Below, piece after piece: positions 4,952 to 62,744 of a DNA stretch of 64,000 bases. Origin of the DNA: Candidatus Omnitrophota bacterium (GTDB lineage: Bacteria > Omnitrophota > Gorgyraeia > Duberdicusellales > 4484-171); contig JAIPHU010000003.1 of assembly GCA_021735045.1 (NCBI GenBank), positions 304-64,303 of the forward strand. Direction: 5' to 3'. How positions within the stretch are numbered: position 1 is the first letter of the stretch; the number at the start of each line of letters is the position of its first letter. Below the pieces are notes generated by a model that worked only from the letters and a program-made list of their open reading frames with translations, had not been told where the DNA came from and made no database searches. A program made the translations under genes and the position numbers.

Positions 4952-5056
4952 AAAATACCAAATTCGAATTTCAAAATTCGAAGCACGAAATAATTTAAAA
5001 AATCAAAAAAAGTATAATCCCTGTTTTAAAAAATTGAAATATTTAGACATTCGAAT

Positions 5057-6760
5057 TTATTGTAAAGCAACGCCGACAATTTGAGGATTAATGATCAGAA
5101 TTAAACCTAAAACTACCATAATCACTCCACCAATTAACTTTATAATCTTAATTTGTCTCTGGCTAATTCTCTTAGCCTGGAAAGTATAGCCAAATATTGC
5201 AACTATTACAACTAAGGGCAATACATAAATTAAATTATAAAATAGTATCCACAAATAATAACTACTAGACTCTATAGCGATTTTACCAGCAAGTACAGTT
5301 GTAAATATTATGGGAAAACCCGCCGTACAAGGAAGTTCAACAAATGAACTAAATACTGCTAACCCTATTGAAGACAAAATCAACACAAACACAGAACCTT
5401 CCTCAGCTATCTTCCTCAATCGATTCATCTTTTTAACAAGAACTTCTTTTTGTTTTTGGCCAATAGTTAAAGAAACTCCTTTTTTAAAGAAAAAGAAATC
5501 TTTACAATTAATTAATCCAGCTATAATTGCAATAACTCCAATAATTAACCGTAAAGGGGTAAAAAATCCAAAATATTTAAATATATTAAGCCAAGCTACC
5601 ATAAACAGAAAATAAAAAAGAAAAATAATAAATACAAAAACAAAACCTACTGCGTATATTTTCTTCTTATTACCCGAAGCTGAAACTAATAAAGCAAGCA
5701 GTAAAGTTAAAACAAATAAATTACAAGGATTAAAACCGTCAACAAGTGCAATAATAAAAGTAAAAAAGGGTAAGGGTAAATTAGCTCCAAACTCTTTTAA
5801 AAAATCAGTGGGGATATTTTTTGCTATAATAAAAATAAAGGCAAAAGTAACTAGCGAAATAATTATTATGCCTAAATTTTTTAAGGCTTTACTTTTTTTT
5901 GAAAATAATAATTTTATTTTTTTCCAAAATAATAACAAAAATAGCAATAATATGACTAAGGCTTCTAAACTAATATATAAGTTTTTAGTTTTGATTGTCT
6001 TTTGCAAAGATAGAATATAATCAGTTAAAAATTTTTTTTCGGTTTGATTGGGTTTGGGTTTATCCCTACTTACCTTTTCTTGCTCCCATTGAAATATCCA
6101 CCCTCCTATTTTTACTGCATTTTTAAAAAAAATTTTCCCTTTAGATATTAAAATATCTCTAGGTTTAATTTTTTTGGAATCTAGTTCTTCTAAATTTGAT
6201 TTTAAATCAGATGATATAAGTAGCTTCTTTAATCTATTATTATTGCCATTTTTTTTACCTGAAATTAACACTCTGTCTTTATGCCAAATCTTTACCGCAC
6301 CTGGTAATGAGTTTAAATCTAGCTCACTAAAAGATTCACTTTGACCTGAGGGCAAAGAACAAAAATTCACGTCTTTGGTCCTTAATGTTTTATCTATTTT
6401 ATTAATCTCTCTGCTTCCTAAAGCTTTTGAATCTTTATTTAACAAAAAGAAAGGTACTCCGGAACGAGTGTTAGACAAGTAATTATCAAAATATTCCATA
6501 GCTATTTTTTTATTAGCTGAAGCTGATTTATAAATCTCATACTCAATAACTACTAAATCATCATATTCGGCAAGTAATTTAGAAAAAATTAAAGGATCCG
6601 TCGTGGCACAGTTACTACATCCAATACCGGTAAGATATACAGCACAAAGATCGGGATATTTAGGAGAAACTTCTTTAGCGGAAGAAAAATTTATCGGGGC
6701 TAAAAATAATCCTAAAATAAATAATATTAATATAATTTCTGTATTTTTTTGCCTAAACAT
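5057..6760 (-). CDS. Thioredoxin-like (CxxC) periplasmic domain fused to a CcdA/DsbD-type transmembrane disulfide-transfer domain
   Basis: Signal peptide. CSNC motif. Multi-pass membrane region with DGFNPCN and ELPCTAGFP, matching the two conserved Cys-containing segments of CcdA/DsbD-beta. Confidence 0.5.
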   Translation of the reverse strand: MFRQKNTEIILILFILGLFLAPINFSSAKEVSPKYPDLCAVYLTGIGCSNCATTDPLIFSKLLAEYDDLVVIEYEIYKSASANKKIAMEYFDNYLSNTRSGVPFFLLNKDSKALGSREINKIDKTLRTKDVNFCSLPSGQSESFSELDLNSLPGAVKIWHKDRVLISGKKNGNNNRLKKLLISSDLKSNLEELDSKKIKPRDILISKGKIFFKNAVKIGGWIFQWEQEKVSRDKPKPNQTEKKFLTDYILSLQKTIKTKNLYISLEALVILLLFLLLFWKKIKLLFSKKSKALKNLGIIIISLVTFAFIFIIAKNIPTDFLKEFGANLPLPFFTFIIALVDGFNPCNLFVLTLLLALLVSASGNKKKIYAVGFVFVFIIFLFYFLFMVAWLNIFKYFGFFTPLRLIIGVIAIIAGLINCKDFFFFKKGVSLTIGQKQKEVLVKKMNRLRKIAEEGSVFVLILSSIGLAVFSSFVELPCTAGFPIIFTTVLAGKIAIESSSYYLWILFYNLIYVLPLVVIVAIFGYTFQAKRISQRQIKIIKLIGGVIMVVLGLILIINPQIVGVALQ

Positions 6761-6825: not shown

Positions 6826-9231
6826 ATGGTTGTAATATCAAAAAAAACAGCTAAAATGATTGATATGATTTATAAATTTAATAACAATACAGAAGAATTT
6901 ACAGTAGATAACGCTTACAAATACAACAACTATTTCCCTTTAACTAATAGATCCGGAAGCTTACTTTCTTCGATCAGTCCTAATTTATCCGGGGATATAA
7001 AAAGAGATAATGATCACTTCCTTACTCCACCGGCAACGATAATCGATACAAGACATAATCCTTTGGTCCGCAGAGATTTTTTTATAAAAATTAATTCTGG
7101 TTCAACAAAAGAAAAAATTATCCGGCTCTCAGATCCATATCCAGACAAGCTTCAAGCTGGTTTTTTTTATCATAAACTTACAAAATACACAAAGTTAATC
7201 GATGTAGAAATATTAAACTTTATCCCTTACAACCTCGATCTAGAACTAATGCAAATTAAAATAAAAAATAAATCAAATAAAGACTTAGATATTTCCGCTT
7301 GCTCATCAATCCCTCTCTACGGAAGAAGTGAGTCAACATTACGAGACCATCGTCATGTAAGCAGCCTTTTAAATCATATTAATTTAACCAAAAATGGCAT
7401 CTTACTTAGGCCTACACTCTTATTTAACGAAAAAGGGCATCAATTAAATCAAACTACTTATTTTTGTTTAGCTAAAAGTCCAAAAGCTAAAATTAAAGGC
7501 CAATTCCCTACTCTTGATTATTTTTGTGGCCAAGGAGACCTGATAAAGCCTGATGCAGTTTATAAAAATAAAAAATCAGCTAAAAAGAAATTAAATAGCT
7601 TTGACGGTAAAGAAGCAATAGCTGCTTTTAATTTTGAAACTAAAAAATTAAAAAAAGGTAAACAAATAAACTATATCATCGGTTTAGGCTTGATAACAGG
7701 CTCTGTGGGAAAATGTCAAAATAAAATAGATAACCTATTTTCTAAAGTCAACACCAACACAAAGATAAAAAAAGAACTTCATAATACTAAAAAATATTGG
7801 CGAAAGAGTTTTAAAAAAATAGAGTTTAATTTTAGCGATAAAAATTATAATTGTTGGCTTAAATGGGTAAAAGCTCAGCCGACCTTGCGAAAGCTTTTTG
7901 GCTGTTCCTTTCTGCCTCATTTTGATTACGGCAAAGGCGGCAGGGGTTGGAGGGATCTTTGGCAAGATGCATTAATCCTATTACACTATGAACCAAAAGA
8001 AGCTCGCAATTTAATTATCAACTCTTTTGCTGGTGTAAGAATAGATGGCTCTAATGCAACGATTATTAAAAAGGATAACTCTTTTTTACCAGACCGAAAT
8101 AAAATCAGCCGGGTTTGGTCTGACCATGGAATCTGGCCGTATCTTACTCTAAAATCTTATCTCAATCACAGTGCTGATATAAATATTTTAAATAATCAGC
8201 TACCTTATTTTCGTGACCCCCACTTATTTCGAGCCAGAAAAATAGATCCTAATTTTAAACAAAAAGATTTTATTTTAAAAACTACAAATAATAAAATTTA
8301 TAAGGGAACTATCCTAGAACACCTGCTTATCCAAAATTTAACATCATTTTTTAATGTTGGTTTTCACAATATTATCAAGTTAGAAAGTGCTGATTGGAAC
8401 GATGCTTTAGACATGGCTGATGATTCTGGAGAGACTGTAACTTTTAGTTTTATGTATGCGCACAATTTAAAAAGTATCGCTCAATTATTGCGCCTTTTGC
8501 AAAAAAAACAAAAGAAAATAAAAATTTTAAAAGAGTTAACTTTGCTCCTTGATAGCTTAGATAGCCCCGTTAATTACAATCATTTTTCTCAAAAACAAAA
8601 AAGATTAAAAAAATATTTAGCCAGTACTATAAAAATATCCGGAGAAAAAATAGAAGTTTCTTTAGAAAATGTTATCTATGATTTAGAAAAAAAATATAAA
8701 CACCTCAAAAATTGGCTCCTAGAAAAGGAGTGGTTAAAAGAAGGTTTTTTTAACGGCTACTATGATAATGCCGGAAAAAGAGTCGGGGGTAAAAACAAAG
8801 GAAAAATAAAGATGATGCTTGCTCCACAAGTTTTTGCCATAATGAGTGAAATAGCTACTGTAGATCAAATTAAAAAAATCTGGCGATCAACAAACAAGTA
8901 TTTAAAAGATAATACTAGAAGTTTTCGGCTTAATACAGATTTTGGCTCTACTTACCAAGAATTAGGCAGAGCTTTTGGTTTTAAGTTCGGTGATAAAGAA
9001 AATGGAGCTTTTTTTAGCCATATGATTATTATGTTTTCTTATGCTCTTTACAAAAGAGGTTTTAAAAAAGAAGGCGCTAAAACCCTCGCTTCTATCTATA
9101 AAATGGTTACATCTAACTCTAATACAACTTACCCCCAACTACCTGAATATTTCAACAGCCAGGGGCAAGGCCTTTATTCCTACCTTACCGGCTCAGCCAG
9201 CTGGTATATCCATACTTTATTACAAAATTAA
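6826..9231 (+). CDS. (alpha/alpha)6-barrel glycoside hydrolase/phosphorylase-like protein (GH94/GH65/GDE-like)
   Basis: 801 aa. GGRGWRDLWQD and ESADWNDALDMADD motifs resemble the catalytic region of cellobiose-phosphorylase-like / amylo-alpha-1,6-glucosidase families. Confidence 0.4.
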   Translation: MVVISKKTAKMIDMIYKFNNNTEEFTVDNAYKYNNYFPLTNRSGSLLSSISPNLSGDIKRDNDHFLTPPATIIDTRHNPLVRRDFFIKINSGSTKEKIIRLSDPYPDKLQAGFFYHKLTKYTKLIDVEILNFIPYNLDLELMQIKIKNKSNKDLDISACSSIPLYGRSESTLRDHRHVSSLLNHINLTKNGILLRPTLLFNEKGHQLNQTTYFCLAKSPKAKIKGQFPTLDYFCGQGDLIKPDAVYKNKKSAKKKLNSFDGKEAIAAFNFETKKLKKGKQINYIIGLGLITGSVGKCQNKIDNLFSKVNTNTKIKKELHNTKKYWRKSFKKIEFNFSDKNYNCWLKWVKAQPTLRKLFGCSFLPHFDYGKGGRGWRDLWQDALILLHYEPKEARNLIINSFAGVRIDGSNATIIKKDNSFLPDRNKISRVWSDHGIWPYLTLKSYLNHSADINILNNQLPYFRDPHLFRARKIDPNFKQKDFILKTTNNKIYKGTILEHLLIQNLTSFFNVGFHNIIKLESADWNDALDMADDSGETVTFSFMYAHNLKSIAQLLRLLQKKQKKIKILKELTLLLDSLDSPVNYNHFSQKQKRLKKYLASTIKISGEKIEVSLENVIYDLEKKYKHLKNWLLEKEWLKEGFFNGYYDNAGKRVGGKNKGKIKMMLAPQVFAIMSEIATVDQIKKIWRSTNKYLKDNTRSFRLNTDFGSTYQELGRAFGFKFGDKENGAFFSHMIIMFSYALYKRGFKKEGAKTLASIYKMVTSNSNTTYPQLPEYFNSQGQGLYSYLTGSASWYIHTLLQN

Positions 9232-9520: not shown

Positions 9521-10015
9521 TTAGAAAGATATAGAAATAATTTTAGTTTGGTCACTTTTCGGATCAATAAGTTCTACTGAATCTACCTTTATTTTTGAAA
9601 CAGTGAAATTGCTTATCTTATCACCTTTAAAAACTCGCTTACCGTTGATAATCGCAAATGGATTATCTTTATCAAAAACTACTCCTTCTAATCTATAGGC
9701 AGAATTTGATTGTTTTGGTTTTGATTTTTCAGCTGCAGCCTTCCGGCGCCCGCCCAGGCTATTTTTTATCTTTTCTGCACCAGTTTCCTTTATAGACCCT
9801 GTTGCACTATCCTTTTTCCTAGGCCCAGAAGAAACTATTCTTTTAAAGCTAGAAAAATTATAAGCTAGAATAAAAGCCAGAGCAAAAACAATAAAAATCA
9901 AAGTAACTAAAATAATCTTTTTGGAATTAGGTTTTTTTGGCTGGTTATTCTTGCTAGATAAAGATTCGGGAGATTTACCTTCGGCCTTTTTTAAAGCTTC
10001 ATAGATTATGCTCAT
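9521..10015 (-). CDS. GspB/ExeB-like protein (T2SSB-type C-terminal domain), single transmembrane segment
   Basis: Single TM. C-terminal LEGVVFDKDNPFAIINGKRVFKGDKI...VELID matches the GspB/PilP beta-sandwich motif. Downstream of exeA. Confidence 0.45.
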   Translation of the reverse strand: MSIIYEALKKAEGKSPESLSSKNNQPKKPNSKKIILVTLIFIVFALAFILAYNFSSFKRIVSSGPRKKDSATGSIKETGAEKIKNSLGGRRKAAAEKSKPKQSNSAYRLEGVVFDKDNPFAIINGKRVFKGDKISNFTVSKIKVDSVELIDPKSDQTKIISISF

Positions 10016-10039
10016 GGTAATTTTATTAATTAATTTTCA

Positions 10040-10125
10040 TCTACGAATTTACTAATTTATACGAATATACAAATAAAAAATAAAAATATTCGTAAATTCG
10101 TAATTGATTCGTACGTTCGTTGATT
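10040..10125. repeat. TACGAAT/ATTCGTA iteron-like palindromic element, copy A
   Basis: TACGAAT x2 (10042, 10060) followed by ATTCGTA x3 (10088, 10096, 10107). Related element at 42670-42760. Confidence 0.6.
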
Positions 10126-10140
10126 ATTCTGCTTATCAAT

Positions 10141-10947
10141 TCATTGTAGTTCTTTGATGCAGACTTTCAGCATAGAAGGTGTTACTTTATTTTTTCCCTG
10201 AACAAAACCTAAAAGCAAAACTCTTTCGCAAAGTAAATTTATTAATCTCGGAATCCCTTTTGAAAATTGATAGATAACCTGATAGCACTCAGGCTCAATC
10301 GCTACATCTTGGGCTTTAGCCGTATTCAGGCGGTATTCTATATAGTTTTTTATCTCTTCCTTGCGTAAAGGCAAAAGCCTGCATTTTATATTTATTCTTT
10401 GTTTTATCTGCCTAAGCTTAAACTCATTTAGCTTATCTTCTAACTCCGGCTGTCCAACTAATAAAATCTGGAGTAACTTCTCTTGAGAAGTTTCTAAGTT
10501 AGATAAAAGCCTGACTTGTTCAAGCTGTTTAGAAGTTAAATTTTGAGCTTCGTCAATCACCAACAAAGCATTCTTACCTGAAAAGGAAGTATCAACTAAA
10601 AAAGAGTTTAACTTTTTTACTAAATCAAACCGGTTTAACCTGGCCGGTTCAAGGCCGAAATCAGCTAAAATAGTTTTAAGCAGTTGAGTTTGACTGAATT
10701 GAGGAGAACTAAAAATTACTGAACTTTTTATATCTTTAGATAAATGATCAAGAAAAACCTTACACAGAGTGGTTTTTCCGGTTCCAACTTCGCCGATAAC
10801 CGCCATTAAGCCTTTCTTCTGAACCACCCCAAAATTAAGAGTAGATAAAACTTCCCTGTGGGTTGAGCTTTGATAAAAAAAGTTAGGATCTGCAGTAATA
10901 TTAAAGGGAGCAGTTTTTAGGCCATATAAGCTTAAATAGTTATTCAT
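10141..10947 (-). CDS. exeA: ExeA/GspA-like AAA ATPase (MshM-like)
   Basis: LYGLKTAPFNITADPNFFY N-terminus, GEVGTGKTTLCK Walker A, 268 aa. Confidence 0.75.
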   Translation of the reverse strand: MNNYLSLYGLKTAPFNITADPNFFYQSSTHREVLSTLNFGVVQKKGLMAVIGEVGTGKTTLCKVFLDHLSKDIKSSVIFSSPQFSQTQLLKTILADFGLEPARLNRFDLVKKLNSFLVDTSFSGKNALLVIDEAQNLTSKQLEQVRLLSNLETSQEKLLQILLVGQPELEDKLNEFKLRQIKQRINIKCRLLPLRKEEIKNYIEYRLNTAKAQDVAIEPECYQVIYQFSKGIPRLINLLCERVLLLGFVQGKNKVTPSMLKVCIKELQ

Positions 10948-30116: not shown

Positions 30117-30230
30117 TTTTACCTCCTTTTTATTAGAAAATAGATAATAGAAATTAGAAGCTAGAAAAATATTTTACTTATTATTTTTTTATATTCTCTA
30201 ATTTCTATCTTCTCTTTTCTATCTTCTTCT

Positions 30231-41710: not shown

Positions 41711-42511
41711 TTATTTTTGACAGCGGGGACAAAAGCAGGTTCCTCTCCCGGCTACAACCACCTTTTTAAGAAAAGTTTTACAAACTGGACAAGGTTCATT
41801 CTTTTTCCCATAAACTTTCAGCCTTTTTTCCATTCCCCCGGCTTCTCCGCTTAAATCACGATAAGAATCAACCGATGATCCCCTGTATTTTACAGCTTCG
41901 GTTAAAACCGCTTTTAAATTTTGGTAAAGCTTTTTGATTTCTGAGCCAGATAAACTGTTTGCTCTGCGGCGCGGGTCAATTTTTGCCAAAAACAGAGCTT
42001 CTTGAGCATAGATATTTCCAACTCCGGCAATAAAATTTTGATTCATGATTAAAGCCTTGATATTTCCTTTTTTAGGCTCCACCATCTGTCTAAATTGCTC
42101 AGCGGTTAACTGAAAAATTTCTGGGCCCAATTTTTTTAAAAAATCTAAATCTTTGTAATTTTTTCGCAATCGCAGGTGCCCAAGCAAGCGTGAATCCATG
42201 TAATTAAGTGCTTTGCCATTGGAGAAATTGAAAATTACTCTAGCCCGTTCTTGGCTTTCTCCATAATGAAGCCAGCCGGTCATTCTTAAATGAATTACTA
42301 AAAATTTTTCTTTTTTTAATTTAAGAATCAAAAGCTTGCCCCGCCTGATCACCTTTTCAACTTCTTGACCAATAATTTCTTTTTTAAATTGGGGCCAGGA
42401 TGGTTCTTTTATCACTTCAACTCTGTTAATTTTTACTGCAGTAATTTCTTCCCCGAGAACATTTTCGGCTAATTCTCTTTTGATTGTCTCGACTTCTGGT
42501 AATTCTGGCAT
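41711..42511 (-). CDS. mutM: Formamidopyrimidine-DNA glycosylase
   Basis: MPELPEVETIKRELAENVLGEEI N-terminus (catalytic P2/E3). C-terminal CPVC...CPRC zinc finger. Confidence 0.9.
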   Translation of the reverse strand: MPELPEVETIKRELAENVLGEEITAVKINRVEVIKEPSWPQFKKEIIGQEVEKVIRRGKLLILKLKKEKFLVIHLRMTGWLHYGESQERARVIFNFSNGKALNYMDSRLLGHLRLRKNYKDLDFLKKLGPEIFQLTAEQFRQMVEPKKGNIKALIMNQNFIAGVGNIYAQEALFLAKIDPRRRANSLSGSEIKKLYQNLKAVLTEAVKYRGSSVDSYRDLSGEAGGMEKRLKVYGKKNEPCPVCKTFLKKVVVAGRGTCFCPRCQK

Positions 42512-42669
42512 AGCTTTTTATCCTTTATTTTATTCTTTGTATCAAATTATTTTCTTTTTTATATAGATAACGTCGGATCCAATATTATTATTGATTAAGT
42601 TTTGCTTCGCAAAAATTGGATGCGACTTCTGGTAATTCTGGCATTATACTCTCCAGGTTAACTCAATTT

Positions 42670-42760
42670 ATTATCAACGAATATACGAATCAATTACGAA
42701 TTTACAAATAGAAATAAATATTCGTATATTCGTAGGAGATTGGTAAATTCGTTGATTAAT
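42670..42760. repeat. ACGAAT/ATTCGT iteron-like palindromic element, copy B
   Basis: ACGAAT at 42677, 42685, 42696, then ATTCGT at 42720, 42728, 42747. Nested inverted repeats (atcaacgaa/ttcgttgat). Confidence 0.6.
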
Positions 42761-42767
42761 TCTTCTC

Positions 42768-43160
42768 CTAATTAATTATCTTCAGATAGACTTTCCTGTC
42801 CCGCGGGCCATCAAACTCACAGAAATATATTCCCTGCCAAGTTCCTAAAACAATCTCATTGTTTTCTATAATCAACTCTAGGGTAGGCCCCAAAAGTGAG
42901 CTTTTTATATGAGAATCAGAGTTGCCTTCTGCATGCCGATAACCTTTATCGGCAGGAACAAGCTGATTTAGATAATTTATGATATCCTCACAAACTGCCG
43001 GGTCCGCATTTTCATTTATAGTTAAAGCCGCAGTAGTATGAGCACAAGACAAAAGACAGATTCCTTTCTTTATCTGAGATTTTTTTATTATCTGTTTTGT
43101 TTCTGAACTGATATCAATAAGTTCATTCCTTTTTTTTGAACTAATATTTATTGTTTCCAT
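42768..43160 (-). CDS. YjbQ/UPF0047 family protein (secondary thiamine-phosphate synthase-like)
   Basis: CAHTTAALTINEN...NSDSH...LGTWQGIYFCEFDGPRDRKVYLKI matches YjbQ family conserved blocks. 130 aa. Confidence 0.7.
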   Translation of the reverse strand: METINISSKKRNELIDISSETKQIIKKSQIKKGICLLSCAHTTAALTINENADPAVCEDIINYLNQLVPADKGYRHAEGNSDSHIKSSLLGPTLELIIENNEIVLGTWQGIYFCEFDGPRDRKVYLKIIN

Positions 43161-59262: not shown

Positions 59263-60708
59263 ATGGAAAAAAGAACAGTTTTTGCTTTTTTATTGTTGAT
59301 TGGCTTTTTTTTGGTTTGGTCTCAGTTTGCTCCAAAGAAGGTTCCACAAACGCTTGAAGGACAAGAAGTTGTAAGCGAAAGCGTGCAAACGACCCCCCAA
59401 GAGCCTCAGCCGAAAATATCGGAAGCCGGAGAAAAAAGCCTTCCTGCAGAAGGTGTCGCCCTCAAAGAAATAAAAATAAATAACTACTATATTACCTATT
59501 CTCCTCAGGGTGGATATATTCAGTCCATTGCTTTAAATAAACCAACTAATATTCTTCCTTTTCAGAACTTAGGGTACCAATCAGCGAAAAAGGACATAAA
59601 CTATAAAGTTAATGTTGGGCAAGACAGCATTTCTTTTGTTGAGGGCAGTTCCCCTCCCAAAAAATATGTTTTTAGTGAGGATACCATAAAGATAGAAAAT
59701 GTTGCCGGCTCCCCCATTTTATTGTTTTCATTTTCTTTAAATTCAGGAACTTCACATATAAGTAAAAGGTATTTTGAATCATTTTATAGTAAAGATAAAT
59801 CTATCCAAAGAACCCATCCTAAAAAAGTTAAACAAGAAGTTGAAAAAAGAGTAGAATTTGCCGGGGCTAGGAGTAGGTATTATGCAATTAGTTTATTACC
59901 CGATCTTTATAATATTGAATGGAGCAAAACTAAAGAAAGAACAAATCTTTACCTAAATAATCCTTCCTCCACCATATTGCTTTATCTTGGGCCGCAAATT
60001 ACCGACAATATGGAAACATATGGGTTGGCGGGTATAGTTTATTATGGGTTTTGGCATTTTTTGGCGGTAGCAATTATAAAAATACTATATTTTTTCTATA
60101 GTTTTCTGCATAATTGGGGGCTTAGTATAATCTTTCTTTCTTTTTCTACTTATGCTGTGCTGTTTCCTTTTACTTCAAAAAGTACCAAAGCAATGAAAAA
60201 GATGCAAGAGATTCAGCCCTTAATGCAAGAGTTAAAAGAAAAACATAAAGATAATCCTCAAAAGATGCAAAAAGAGACTGTTGAGCTTTATAAAAAGCAT
60301 AAAGTAAACCCTTTGGGCGGGTGTCTTCCTCTTTTGTTTCAATTCCCGATAATTATTGCTTTTTATCAAGTAGTCTTTAGGTTTAGCCGGCTTCAAGGAG
60401 CTTCTTTTCTTTGGATTCAGGATCTATCCTTGCCGGATCGGTTGTTCCATTTGCCTTTTACGATTCCTGTTGTAGGTGTTGAATATTTTAATCTTCTTCC
60501 TATTCTAGTAATGATTTTAGGAATTGTTCAACAACACATAACAGCTTCTTCGTCAAATCCTCAACAAAAAAAGATAGGTTTATTTATGGGAGTATTTATT
60601 GGAATAATATTTTATAAGTTTCCTTCTGCATTAGTTTTGTATTGGTTTGTGCAAAATCTACTCACTCTTATCTACCAAGTCCGTTTGAAAAAAGCCCGCA
60701 CCACCTAA
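59263..60708 (+). CDS. yidC: Membrane protein insertase YidC
   Basis: 481 aa. Periplasmic N-domain plus 5-TM YidC/Oxa1 core (LYWFVQNLLT). Confidence 0.85.
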   Translation: MEKRTVFAFLLLIGFFLVWSQFAPKKVPQTLEGQEVVSESVQTTPQEPQPKISEAGEKSLPAEGVALKEIKINNYYITYSPQGGYIQSIALNKPTNILPFQNLGYQSAKKDINYKVNVGQDSISFVEGSSPPKKYVFSEDTIKIENVAGSPILLFSFSLNSGTSHISKRYFESFYSKDKSIQRTHPKKVKQEVEKRVEFAGARSRYYAISLLPDLYNIEWSKTKERTNLYLNNPSSTILLYLGPQITDNMETYGLAGIVYYGFWHFLAVAIIKILYFFYSFLHNWGLSIIFLSFSTYAVLFPFTSKSTKAMKKMQEIQPLMQELKEKHKDNPQKMQKETVELYKKHKVNPLGGCLPLLFQFPIIIAFYQVVFRFSRLQGASFLWIQDLSLPDRLFHLPFTIPVVGVEYFNLLPILVMILGIVQQHITASSSNPQQKKIGLFMGVFIGIIFYKFPSALVLYWFVQNLLTLIYQVRLKKARTT

Positions 60709-60749
60709 AAAAGATCACTTAAAATCAAAAAACGCTTATTTGGCAAGAG

Positions 60750-61030
60750 GTATTTACGTTTTCACGTGAAAACGCTGCAACCCCTTGATTCTATTAACAT
60801 TTTCTATTTTTACGTGTATCTTTCCAGCTATTAAAGAGGGCTGAAAGATCCATGTGGGAACCTCTACACAACTAGAAAGAAGGAGGCGTTTTCACGTGAA
60901 AATTTTCTTGCTTCTAGATATATGAAAATTTCCACGTGGATATTCTCCTTTTCTTTAGGTGGTGGAGAATATACACGTGAAAACGCTAGAACCCCTTGAT
61001 TTTATTAACAATTCTCATTTTGGTTGTTAT
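60750..61030. promoter_or_regulatory. parS: Cluster of parS-like palindromes (GTTTTCACGTGAAAAC at 60758 and 60888; variants at ~60927, ~60972, ~60850) with two ~40-bp direct repeats, followed by an AT-rich tract (61023-61113)
   Basis: 14/16 match to the parS consensus TGTTTCACGTGAAACA. Immediately upstream of parA-parB. Confidence 0.65.
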
Positions 61031-61113: not shown

Positions 61114-61920
61114 TTGATAACAAAAGATATGGGTAAAATAATTGGTATTTGTAATCAAAAAGGTGGGACCGGCAAAACAACAACTGCCATTAACTTTAGT
61201 TCTTTTTTAGGGCTGGCAGGGGAAAAGACTCTTCTTGTGGACATGGATCCCCAGGGCAATGCTTCTTCTGGAGTTGGCATAGATCCTCAAGGTAAAAAAT
61301 CAGCTTATGAGGTAATTTCAGGAGATGCCCAGGTAGAGGAAGCTATTTATTCTACAGATTGGCCTAATTTATCTGTTATGCCCTCAGATATATCTCTTAC
61401 TGGTGGAGAAGTTGAGTTGGTTTCTTTGAACCAGCGGGAACTACTGCTGCGGCAAAGTCTTGAGAAGATTAAAGACGAGTATTCCTATATAGTTATTGAC
61501 GCCCCTCCTTCTTTAGGAGTACTTACTGTTAATGTGTTGTCTGCCGCTGACAGTTTAATTATACCAGTTCAATGTGAGTATTATGCACTAGAAGGAGTTT
61601 CGAAATTGATCGGCACGATTGAGTTAATAAAAGAAAGGCTTAATCCAGGCTTAGAAATTGAAGGGGTTTTGTTGACTATGGCAGATTTTCGAACCCGGCT
61701 TACTTTACAAGTAATAGAAGAAGTAAGAAACTATTTTAAAAATAAAGCTTTTAGCATTATTGTTCCCAGAAACGTGAAGTTAGCTGAAGCTCCTAGTTTT
61801 GGCAAACCTATCTATTTTTATGAATCCGGTTGTGTGGGGGCGAAAGCTTACTTAGAGTTGACTAATGAAGTTGTAGGGCAAGTTCAAGAAATAAATAACT
61901 TTGTTAAGCAGAGAGGTTGA
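61114..61920 (+). CDS. parA: Chromosome partitioning ATPase ParA/Soj
   Basis: KGGTGKTTTAINFS deviant Walker A, 268 aa. Confidence 0.9.
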   Translation: MITKDMGKIIGICNQKGGTGKTTTAINFSSFLGLAGEKTLLVDMDPQGNASSGVGIDPQGKKSAYEVISGDAQVEEAIYSTDWPNLSVMPSDISLTGGEVELVSLNQRELLLRQSLEKIKDEYSYIVIDAPPSLGVLTVNVLSAADSLIIPVQCEYYALEGVSKLIGTIELIKERLNPGLEIEGVLLTMADFRTRLTLQVIEEVRNYFKNKAFSIIVPRNVKLAEAPSFGKPIYFYESGCVGAKAYLELTNEVVGQVQEINNFVKQRG

Positions 61921-62744
61921 TTATGGGTAAAAAAGTATTAGGAAAAGGATTAGACGCTCTTATTCCCAAAAAGAAAAATTCTGGGGGGGACCAATTTGTT
62001 TATCTTCCCGTGGAACAAGTCGAGCCTAATAAATTTCAGCCGCGTAAAGGCATGAACCAGAAGGACTTAGCTGAACTAACCCAATCAGTTAAAGAAAAAG
62101 GTTTTATTCAGCCAATATTAGCGCGGGATATTAAGGGAGGAAAGTATGAAGTTGTGGCTGGAGGAAGAAGGTTAGAAGCCGCTAAGTTGTTGGGCATCAA
62201 GGAGATACCCGCAGTAGTCAGAGACCTAGACAATAAAGATTCCTTTATCGCCGCAATAGTCGAAAATCTACAAAGAAAAAATCTTAATCCAATTGAAGAA
62301 GCCCAAGCTCTTACCCGCCTTAGGGATGAGTTTAATTTTTCTTTAGATGAAATTGCCAAATTTATCAGTAAAGACAAGACAACAGTGGTAAATACAATTC
62401 GTTTGCTTAAACTTCCAAAAAAGATTAAATCGGCTTTAGAAGAGAATCTTATTAACCGGAGCCAGGCCAGGACAATACTTTCTTTTAAAAGCAAGATTCA
62501 GCAAGAAAAAATATTTTATAAGATTCTTCACAAAGGGCTTACAGTAAGAGATGTGGAGAAACAAGCTGTCAGGAAAAACAAAAAAACAAAAGTTGATCCT
62601 TTTGTTGAAGAAGCTGAGCAGCAGTTACAAAAAAGCCTTGGGACAAAGGTAAGAATCATTAGTTCAAAAAATAAAAAAGGCAAGATTATTCTTCATTATT
62701 ATAATTTAAATGATTTTGAAAGAATCATAAAAAGAATTAGCTAA
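61917..62744 (+). CDS. parB: Chromosome partitioning protein ParB/Spo0J (TTG start)
   Basis: GGRRLEAAK ParB box, helix-turn-helix. Overlaps parA. 275 aa. Confidence 0.85.
   Translation: MIMGKKVLGKGLDALIPKKKNSGGDQFVYLPVEQVEPNKFQPRKGMNQKDLAELTQSVKEKGFIQPILARDIKGGKYEVVAGGRRLEAAKLLGIKEIPAVVRDLDNKDSFIAAIVENLQRKNLNPIEEAQALTRLRDEFNFSLDEIAKFISKDKTTVVNTIRLLKLPKKIKSALEENLINRSQARTILSFKSKIQQEKIFYKILHKGLTVRDVEKQAVRKNKKTKVDPFVEEAEQQLQKSLGTKVRIISSKNKKGKIILHYYNLNDFERIIKRIS

Follow-up and report, generated by a model that had tools for sequence, protein, structure and literature searches.

The 64,000-nucleotide (nt) stretch of contig JAIPHU010000003.1 from a Candidatus Omnitrophota bacterium, referred to here as the window, carries two copies of a non-coding palindromic element of approximately 75–90 bp that is built from the heptamer TACGAAT and recurs between genes in many other uncultured bacteria, which belong to three or more phyla. 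The explanation that fits best, and to which about an even chance of being correct may be given, is that the element is a dispersed, insertion-polymorphic, intergenic and non-autonomous palindromic repeat, most likely present in transcripts as an intercistronic hairpin.

The repeats that a first-pass annotation of the window had reported at 10040-10125 and 42670-42760 are present in the sequence as it described them, with nine of the 11 exact TACGAAT heptamers in the window lying inside these two loci, and the same-strand junctions in which it had placed them, between an ExeA-like gene and a 164-aa open reading frame (ORF) and between yjbQ and mutM, are confirmed. Each arm of either copy holds four (T)ACGAAT heptamers grouped as two dimers, and both loci are interrupted palindromes, the 38-nt arms of copy 2 being 82% complementary. 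The frequency check proposed in the annotation gives a divided answer: the plain hexamer ACGAAT occurs as often as chance predicts (20 times versus 19.6 expected), whereas the dimer ACGAATnTACGAAT, with up to two mismatches, has 10 matches against 1.3 expected, eight of them in the two loci, and no shuffled sequence reaches 10. The non-randomness resides in the clustering and the architecture of the units, and the abundance of the motif as such is not raised. The two copies align with each other in both orientations, and an nhmmer profile made from their four arms finds those four arms only when run across the 64 kb; the copies are homologous. Folded as single-stranded RNA, copy 1 reaches −22.6 kcal/mol (z = −3.7 versus shuffled sequence) and copy 2 reaches −31.8 kcal/mol (z = −7.6). 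The stems are AT-rich, no T-run follows either copy, and a terminator scan returned nothing at either locus; a search with Rfam found four tRNAs alone at the gathering score across the window, and nothing credible up to E = 10 over positions 9950-10200.

Copy 1 is an insertion, because in five relatives (loci L117-L121), whose ExeA-like proteins are 94, 86, 84, 84 and 80% identical to that of the window, the ExeA-like gene and the gene for the 164-aa protein share an ATGA overlap or, in the most distant relative, are separated by 3 nt, at the very point where the window has 125 extra nt, with ATGA kept at both sides and both reading frames intact. Copy 2 is likewise absent from the yjbQ–mutM spacer in the four relative loci checked (L125-L128, from two lineages), and in relatives with 84% and 74% MutM identity this spacer is element-free and measures 94 and 59 nt, respectively. 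This comparison of orthologous junctions, which had been put forward in the first-pass annotation, lends support, together with the dispersed multicopy family described below, to one of the possibilities raised there, namely that of short palindromic mobile repeats.

The wider motif search also suggested there was run with the pattern CGAATNTACNAATN{5,20}ATTNGTANATTCG, which is taken from the centre of both copies and specifies 22 bases, against a collection of species-representative genomes (596 Gb), for which approximately one chance match is expected by our own estimate. Matches were obtained at more than 116 loci, counting the matches listed; the DNA sampled for the family consists of 8-kb blocks around these matches, and the taxon labels are those of the records. 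It has to be added that conservation at the 22 fixed positions is partly due to construction, while the outer units, the termini and the comparisons between orthologous copies are unaffected by it. Among the matches listed, all are metagenome-assembled genomes (MAGs), which represent many classes of Patescibacteria (candidate phyla radiation, CPR), as well as Omnitrophota and Bacteroidota, with a few records labelled Gammaproteobacteria and one labelled Anaerolineae; some of the matched contigs are 0.3-1.5 Mb in length. A scan of viral contigs gave no match, and a BLAST search of plasmids gave none either. Several genomes contribute several loci, and some stretches of 4-8 kb hold three copies (L035, L039 and L093). 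Counting unit clusters gave 142 copies in 0.87 Mb, every one of which (142/142) is oriented as TACGAAT, loop, ATTCGTA, and the two copies in the 64-kb window together with the extra copies in the fetched loci lead to an estimated density of approximately 30 copies per Mb. Copies from the same genome have loop and spacer sequences in common (again L035, L039 and L093), which, taken with the insertion polymorphism, argues that the whole pre-formed element is copied.

The anatomy of the element is modular. Each arm starts with two or three terminal nt and an outer unit, followed after 0–1 nt by a second unit, then by a spacer of 2–7 nt and by an inner dimer of the form TACGAAT-N-TACGAAT, which in most copies reads TACGAATATACGAAT; a loop of 5-20 nt (35-105 nt in a few copies) leads to the mirror image of this arrangement. 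The successive unit spacings of 7–8, approximately 11 and 8 nt make up two inverted arrays and never a strict head-to-tail tandem, and the copies from Bacteroidota usually have a single outer unit per arm. The sequence of the termini depends on the lineage, being GTAG in some and GTTGAT, GTATG or GTAAA in others, and their symmetry is nevertheless kept: the three terminal nt are mirror-symmetric at 175 of 285 positions versus 101 expected, a value as high as which occurs in none of 5000 shuffles. In an alignment of 28 copies, the column pair 2-96 is occupied by UA 14 times, GC six times, CG four times and AU once, and the pair 3-95 by CG 22 times, AU three times, UA twice and UG once, so that the covariation score of the terminal pairs is 0.090 versus 0.036, with 0 of 500 shuffles as high. 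Symmetry extends to the unspecified base N of the dimer, which matches its mirror position in 83 of 124 copies versus 49 expected.

A complementary view is provided by four pairs of orthologous copies, with flanking proteins that are 69-99% identical, in which the unit modules are 92-98% identical and the loops and spacers only 31-73%. The units are thus conserved as sequence (TACnAAT) and the base of the palindrome as pairing or symmetry, while the remainder drifts; either selection or gene conversion preserves the heptamers after insertion.

The genes around the element are unrelated in function. With E denoting the element, 126 copies include 77 in the co-directional arrangement stop-E-start, 17 in start-E-start and eight in stop-E-stop, and the element is essentially the spacer between two genes, as the median distance is 9 nt from the preceding stop codon and 16 nt to the following start codon. 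The 125 downstream proteins match 190 Pfam families, none of them more than three times, and include ribosomal proteins, tRNA synthetases, RuvB, Lpt proteins and glycosyltransferases. A contig from Saccharibacteria (L035) has three copies within one spc ribosomal operon, in the order S8-E-L6-L18-E-S5-E-L15, one from Sungiibacteriota (Sungbacteria; L039) has copies upstream of the genes for L3, L2 and S17, and on another contig copies adjoin the genes for S3 and L14. In pilus clusters, the arrangement pilB-E-pilC occurs in L013 and L030, and REC-E-REC in L067 and L103. A Shine-Dalgarno-like motif is found at the usual place in only 10 of 111 downstream genes, and none precedes the start codon of the 164-aa ORF next to copy 1. 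Since the neighbours are unrelated and copies reside within operons, a specific regulon, iterons of the plasmid type and an obligatory terminator are excluded.

In the model favored here, a trans-acting protein would recognize the TACnAAT units together with the lineage-specific termini and copy the element into new intergenic sites, in a manner resembling either a transposase that binds repeated sites within terminal inverted repeats or the action of a RAYT (transposase associated with repetitive extragenic palindromic, REP, sequences) on REPINs. Once inserted, the element would be co-transcribed with the flanking genes and fold as a long interrupted hairpin, the base of which is predicted to leave no more than approximately 25 nt between the stop codon of the first gene and the start codon of the second. 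Translational coupling by termination and reinitiation would thereby survive the insertion, as at the former ATGA overlap occupied by copy 1. Such preserved coupling would explain why the element is tolerated, and perhaps retained, in operons for ribosomal proteins, pili and ATPases, and it would also account for the absence of a Shine-Dalgarno site from most downstream genes. That some protein recognizes the TACGAAT heptamer is likely.

Several observations weigh against this interpretation, and they concern the hairpin, the mode of insertion and the mobilizing partner. The spacers between the dimers are not complementary, their symmetry (46 of 129) being that of chance, and position 4 of the unit (TAC[G]AAT) is uncompensated, with 83 paired cases versus 82.3 expected, and unpaired in 12-15 of the 28 aligned copies; for these two reasons, the hairpin is not maintained throughout. 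At unit positions, the sense strand shows G-U versus A-C mismatches in a ratio of 17 to 9, which is not significant. The conservation of the units in situ at orthologous sites points to a function at the level of the host, or to gene conversion, over a purely selfish element. A target-site duplication is not clear at copy 1, and consistent direct repeats were not found around the other copies. Differing heptamer arrays occupy one and the same yjbQ–mutM spacer in related lineages, which could reflect local turnover and not transposition. Finally, no transposase, RAYT or other partner gene adjoins any copy in the fetched loci, and the 0.92 Mb sampled around 116 loci contain no gene enclosed by two arms in the correct order.

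Some further details bear on the same three aspects. An apparent sign of an RNA hairpin, a bias between G-U and A-C mismatches over the whole element (63 vs 98), was rejected, as it is gone at the unit positions and has its source in the composition of the spacers. In the single comparison of a filled with an empty site, the insert of copy 1 has ATGA on both sides and non-palindromic flanks of approximately 16 and 23 nt. No transposase family recurs among the neighbours in the loci sampled. The only Y1_Tnp gene seen (229 aa, IS200/RAYT-like) adjoins yjbQ in a relative (L128:648-1337 and L127:1303-1992), where a different repeat, CYAGGGACACATCCCATTTT, stands in inverted copies on either side of it and a tandem duplicate follows; Omnitrophota thus have a separate system of the REP-like kind, and a tblastn search with the Y1_Tnp protein of L128 found nothing in the window or in the 116 loci.

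The element is one member of a larger class of intergenic arrays with heptamer periodicity, which are often inverted and are plentiful in these genomes. Within the window, a sibling palindrome has the same architecture with a different unit, five copies of TAGAAAn facing five of nTTTCTA, and lies between the genes for V-ATPase subunit I and subunit c, starting approximately 5 nt past the stop codon and ending approximately 15 nt before the next start codon, with AGGAGG in between; its pattern has three matches versus 0.02 expected. In the fetched loci, 184 arrays with a period of 7 and at least four units were counted, which is an enrichment of approximately 30-fold over the 5-6 found in shuffled sequence, while arrays with a period of 8 number 28-30 and a 50-kb control from Escherichia coli, ribosomal operons included, has no period-7 array. 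Inverted units lie near 110 of 192 period-7 arrays, and about half of the arrays fall outside ORFs, although ORFs cover approximately 91% of the sequence.

A few individual arrays of this class may be listed. TCTAnnn arrays occur in L013, L016, L030, L082, L093, L096 and L125. The yjbQ–mutM spacer holds three different arrays in three related lineages of Omnitrophota, namely GACGAnG at L125:2430-2470, TGATAAn/TTATCAn at L127:2424-2495 and the TACGAAT palindrome at 42673-42756 of the window. At L054:7300-7340, L111:6200-6235 and L056 (minus strand, approximately 6850-6890), a TACGAAT element is followed by a TTAGAnn array that reaches the next start codon; this combination is found in two Omnitrophota genomes, and the two types of unit can therefore be physically joined.

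The alternatives to the mobile hairpin differ mainly in what they take the units to be for. In one of them, the arrays are RNA-level platforms for a single-strand binder such as S1, a cold-shock protein or a protein of the CsrA type, which would control translation of the downstream gene, with mobility being secondary and the complementary arm masking and unmasking the sites. This is rather unlikely, even though the last unit ends approximately 8-17 nt before the start codon, at the position of the Shine-Dalgarno motif that only 10 of 111 genes possess, the units are conserved in situ while the loops diverge, copies lie within ribosomal-protein operons and the TAACTGA repeats discussed below offer close parallels (PMC4679880); in a symmetric element, however, half of the sites have the wrong sense in stop-E-start contexts, eight copies lie between convergent genes, and copy 1 is a recent insertion in a lineage poor in relatives. 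A related and still less probable proposal is that the TACnAAT arrays are the cis-element of a horizontally shared system, in which a protein conserved in Patescibacteria, Omnitrophota and some Bacteroidota tunes the cistrons of essential operons; candidate binders would be a sigma factor resembling sigma-H/ComX, an RNA binder of the cold-shock or S1 type, or a new enzyme that binds DNA or RNA hairpins, and the other inverted heptamer arrays might be sister “dialects” of one mechanism. It is quite improbable, on the other hand, that the arrays arise and turn over locally as heptanucleotide simple repeats, by replication slippage and strand switching, with TACGAAT as a favored unit and no mobilizing enzyme. 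Period-7 arrays of many units are indeed abundant, more than half of them with inverted partners, the yjbQ–mutM spacer has three such arrays in three lineages, and heptanucleotides are reported to be the most abundant class of long simple-sequence repeats in prokaryotes (Mrazek 2007, as summarized in PMC4679880). Copy 1, however, is a complete eight-unit palindrome in a former 4-nt gene overlap that offers no local seed, the TACGAAT unit recurs across phyla along with its dimer spacing (7-8, approximately 11 and 8) and orientation, and the units are not in strict tandem.

The remaining alternatives assign the element to transcription. Very improbable is the view that the units are −10-type boxes for a sigma factor resembling sigma-H/ComX, forming a portable cassette of face-to-face promoters for pilus and competence functions: the unit plus its common following base equals the consensus of the streptococcal CIN-box, TACGAATA, copies recur in clusters for type IV pili or type II secretion (L013, L030, L067, L103 and the pilM-secretin-exeA cluster of the window) and two half-elements are directed at pilin-like genes, yet most neighbour genes are unrelated to competence, copies also lie within ribosomal-protein operons, each arm has four boxes that always face inward, the orientation data from half-elements are few and ambiguous, and a 7-mer can match one among many known motifs by chance. 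Half-elements were accordingly set aside as a test of oriented promoters, being too few and too ambiguous, and a sigma-70 promoter was rejected as well; copy 2 has symmetric TTTACA/TTGTAA...TATATT matches, which are not a conserved feature across copies because the spacing from −35 to −10 equals the loop length plus 8 and the loops range from 5 to more than 20 nt. A role of the hairpin as a transcription terminator, an attenuator or a stabilizer of the mRNA 3′ end of the upstream gene has a slighter chance still. It would be consistent with a stable hairpin at a median of 9 nt past stop codons, while it is opposed by the lack of a T-run and of any terminator-scan match at either copy, by three copies in one spc ribosomal operon that needs read-through, by 17 copies between divergent starts and by the conservation of sequence and not of structure alone. 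REP elements of E. coli serve as 3′ stabilizers. Scarcely credible, and already largely refuted, is the idea of operators or iterons to which a dimeric transcription factor, a response regulator or a nucleoid protein binds so as to control the neighbouring genes or a replication origin. In their symmetry and their short conserved units the copies do resemble protein-binding sites, and one copy abuts a CIRCE operator (L075), but there is no coherent regulon, the location between co-transcribed genes at 9 and 16 nt from their codons leaves no room for a separate promoter, the estimated density is approximately 30 copies per Mb, and the unit is conserved in three phyla, including the genome-reduced Patescibacteria; neither is a rep gene nearby, with ParAB and parS-like sites lying 18-50 kb away and unrelated. 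The reading of the repeats as an array for a dimeric regulator or nucleoid protein, which the first-pass annotation had offered, is thus unsupported as stated in view of the 190 Pfam families among 125 proteins and the copies inside operons for ribosomal proteins, pili and the V-ATPase, and the likeness to plasmid iterons that it had drawn fails with the absence of a replication gene nearby and with units that are 7 nt long and inverted.

Both heptamer arrays and palindromes of the kinds represented by REP sequences and miniature inverted-repeat transposable elements (MITEs) are already known; what appears to be undescribed is the TACGAAT unit, the inverted 4+4 plan with covarying termini and the spread over Patescibacteria, Omnitrophota and Bacteroidota. 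Neither of the 14-mers ACGAATATACGAAT and ATTCGTATATTCGT is printed in any paper of the literature searched, in which there was also nothing relevant on palindromic repeats, MITEs or REPs in Patescibacteria or Omnitrophica. A 77-bp inverted repeat of Porphyromonas gingivalis was dismissed as unrelated in sequence, TIGR arrays were dismissed as different in architecture, and integron attC sites were dismissed by inspection, given that the termini ATCAAC...GTTGAT resemble RYYYAAC/GTTRRRY only loosely, that other lineages have different termini and that there is no cassette array.

The closest precedent among heptamer arrays is that of the TAACTGA direct repeats of Beggiatoaceae, Cyanobacteria and five Bacteroidetes (MacGregor 2015, PMC4679880), which are located a short way ahead of start codons that seldom have a ribosome-binding site, are also present within operons for ribosomal proteins, precede unrelated genes and have a patchy spread across phyla with no known mechanism of transfer, while close relatives have shorter spacers free of repeats; S1, Csp and CsrA have been proposed as their binders, and apart from one reported indirect repeat all sets are direct (PMC4679880). 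The TACGAAT element shares with them a specific intergenic heptamer near starts that mostly lack a ribosome-binding site, the presence in ribosomal-protein operons, the lack of a functional link among downstream genes, the shorter repeat-free spacers of close relatives and the patchy cross-phylum occurrence, and for neither is a mobilizing mechanism known; it differs in its unit, in its hosts (Patescibacteria, Omnitrophota and Bacteroidota), in having spaced dimers (7-8 and approximately 11 nt) in place of strict tandems and in arrays that always face each other to form an interrupted palindrome with covarying termini. Heptanucleotide short tandemly repeated repetitive (STRR) sequences were reportedly described in cyanobacteria by Mazel in 1990. 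The present arrays resemble these and other long simple-sequence repeats in having a period of 7 and in being enriched in intergenic DNA, whereas STRR and long simple-sequence repeats are tandem and are seen as products of slippage, in contrast to the inverted pairs, the fixed modular plan and the cross-phylum unit found here.

Among palindromic repeats, the REP, BIME and REPIN elements are located between co-transcribed genes near stop codons, are transcribed as hairpins, persist for long times and number tens to hundreds per genome. The TACGAAT element is similarly extragenic, multicopy and palindromic, and some of its termini read GTAG like the head of a REP; unlike a REP, its arm is a direct array of heptamers that is not self-complementary and pairs only with the opposite arm, its unit is common to several phyla where REP sequences are lineage-specific, and unlike the REPIN-RAYT system it has no RAYT gene flanked by its repeats in the window or the 116 loci. 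It is comparable with MITEs such as Correia/NEMIS, RUP and Nezha in being small, non-coding and intergenic, with terminal inverted symmetry, insertion polymorphism and, as we infer, co-transcription; it departs from them in that no insertion sequence sharing its ends, and so qualifying as a parent, is known or came to light here, that target-site duplication is not clear, and that its arms consist of four repeated 7-mers, with the units alone conserved at orthologous sites. The streptococcal CIN-box, the −10 element of the ComX factor sigma-X, has the consensus TACGAATA (PMC11288034), and the likeness, an identical 7–8-mer with the same tolerance in the first two bases, is one of sequence only: in Firmicutes, a CIN-box stands singly upstream of late competence genes, while the element has eight inward-facing boxes next to genes of all kinds in other phyla. 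Replication iterons differ in being direct repeats of approximately 17–22 bp located by rep or dnaA together with an AT-rich unwinding region, as against inverted 7-nt units at approximately 30 copies per Mb, and an intrinsic terminator differs in its GC-rich stem and T-run, as against AT-rich stems followed by no T-run.

Patescibacteria and Omnitrophota are ultra-small and mostly uncultured, and their gene regulation is almost unknown. That one 7-mer stays intact in at least three phyla, in a fixed palindromic plan and within essential operons while the loops decay, implies a shared molecular recognizer, for which the element could serve as a bait sequence, and it could also serve as a marker for genetic exchange between episymbionts and Bacteroidota. 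The family would extend the phenomenon of TAACTGA and STRR heptamer repeats to new phyla and to an inverted architecture. On a practical level, assemblies are likely to be interrupted at these elements, which probably also mislead the annotation of operons, start codons and terminators in MAGs.

A third locus, at 4955-5060, had been put forward in the first-pass annotation as a TTCGAA-based analogue, and it turned out not to be a member of the family on all three counts. Its motif AATTCGAATT, with up to one mismatch, has four occurrences in place of 7.8 expected, its fold is no better than that of shuffled sequence (z = −0.84), and the arm profile has no match there; the spacer between its inverted repeats is AT-rich and weakly heptamer-periodic. 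The coordinates of this locus are given in Table 1 together with those of the two copies, the sibling palindrome and the adjacent genes.

Table 1. Coordinates of the palindromic repeats in the window and of the genes next to copies 1 and 2
Feature	Position	Strand	Remarks
Copy 1 of the TACGAAT palindromic element, 86 nt	10039-10124	.	Repeat; alignment and profile evidence
Copy 1, left arm	10039-10075		Units TACGAAT, TACTAAT, TACGAAT, TACAAAT; A-rich loop next
Copy 1, right arm	10087-10124		ATTCGTA three times, and GTTCGTT
Copy 2 of the TACGAAT element, 84 nt	42673-42756	.	Arms 42673-42710 and 42719-42756, with an 8-nt gap between
ExeA/GspA-like AAA_22 ATPase gene	10141-10947	-	Last identified gene of the PilM-PilN/O-secretin cluster; stop codon ~16 nt from copy 1
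164-aa ORF downstream of copy 1	9521-10015	-	No Pfam match; start 23 nt from the element
Full 125-nt spacer, ExeA-like gene to 164-aa ORF	10016-10140	-	~16 nt, palindrome, ~23 nt; missing in relatives
YjbQ/UPF0047 gene	42768-43160	-	Stop codon 11 nt from copy 2
MutM/Fpg gene, downstream of copy 2	41711-42511	-	28 nt between the element and the ancestral start context GTTAACCTGGAGAGTATAATG (start at 42644)
Sibling palindrome	30131-30226	.	TAGAAAn five times facing nTTTCTA five times; architecture of the TACGAAT element, different unit
Third locus	4952-5062	.	18-nt inverted repeat pair (4960-4977, 5041-5058) in an AT-rich spacer; outside the family

Some variants of the element were seen in the fetched loci. 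A variant arm (AATGCAAATCTACAAATC..ATGCGAATGCCGCGAAATTGCGAATGCTACAAATC) is present in three CPR genomes (L016:6781-6814, L058:4192-4235 and L099:1129-1172) and mixes TGCGAAT with CTACAAAT units, which suggests that there are subfamilies within the TACGAAT element. Solitary half-elements, consisting of a four-unit arm with no mirror arm, lie at L030:4786-4824 and 6867-6900, L003:2314-2345 and L115:2810-2840, and two of them face pilin-like genes. A short TACGAAT element of two dimers, at L075:5520-5600, lies immediately next to a perfect CIRCE operator (TTAGCACTC-N9-GAGTGCTAA).

Two other features of the window are separate from the family. At the start of mutM (42490-42644, minus strand), the first 22 nt of the gene, ATGCCAGAATTACCAGAAGTCG, are present twice as an exact direct repeat that flanks 111 bp; the upstream copy, whose ribosome-binding context GTTAAYCTGGAGAGTATWATG is conserved in relatives, now opens an 18-codon stub, and the real mutM ORF begins at the downstream copy. 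The 5′ region of mutM thus looks like the site of a 133-bp insertion with a 22-bp duplication, and the 111 bp have no further copy in the window or in the fetched loci. Three parS-like palindromes (TTTTCACGTGAAAA) at 60744-60787, 60886-60907 and 60965-60986 sit between yidC (59263-60708) and parA/parB (61114-62744), and the window is probably located near a replication origin.

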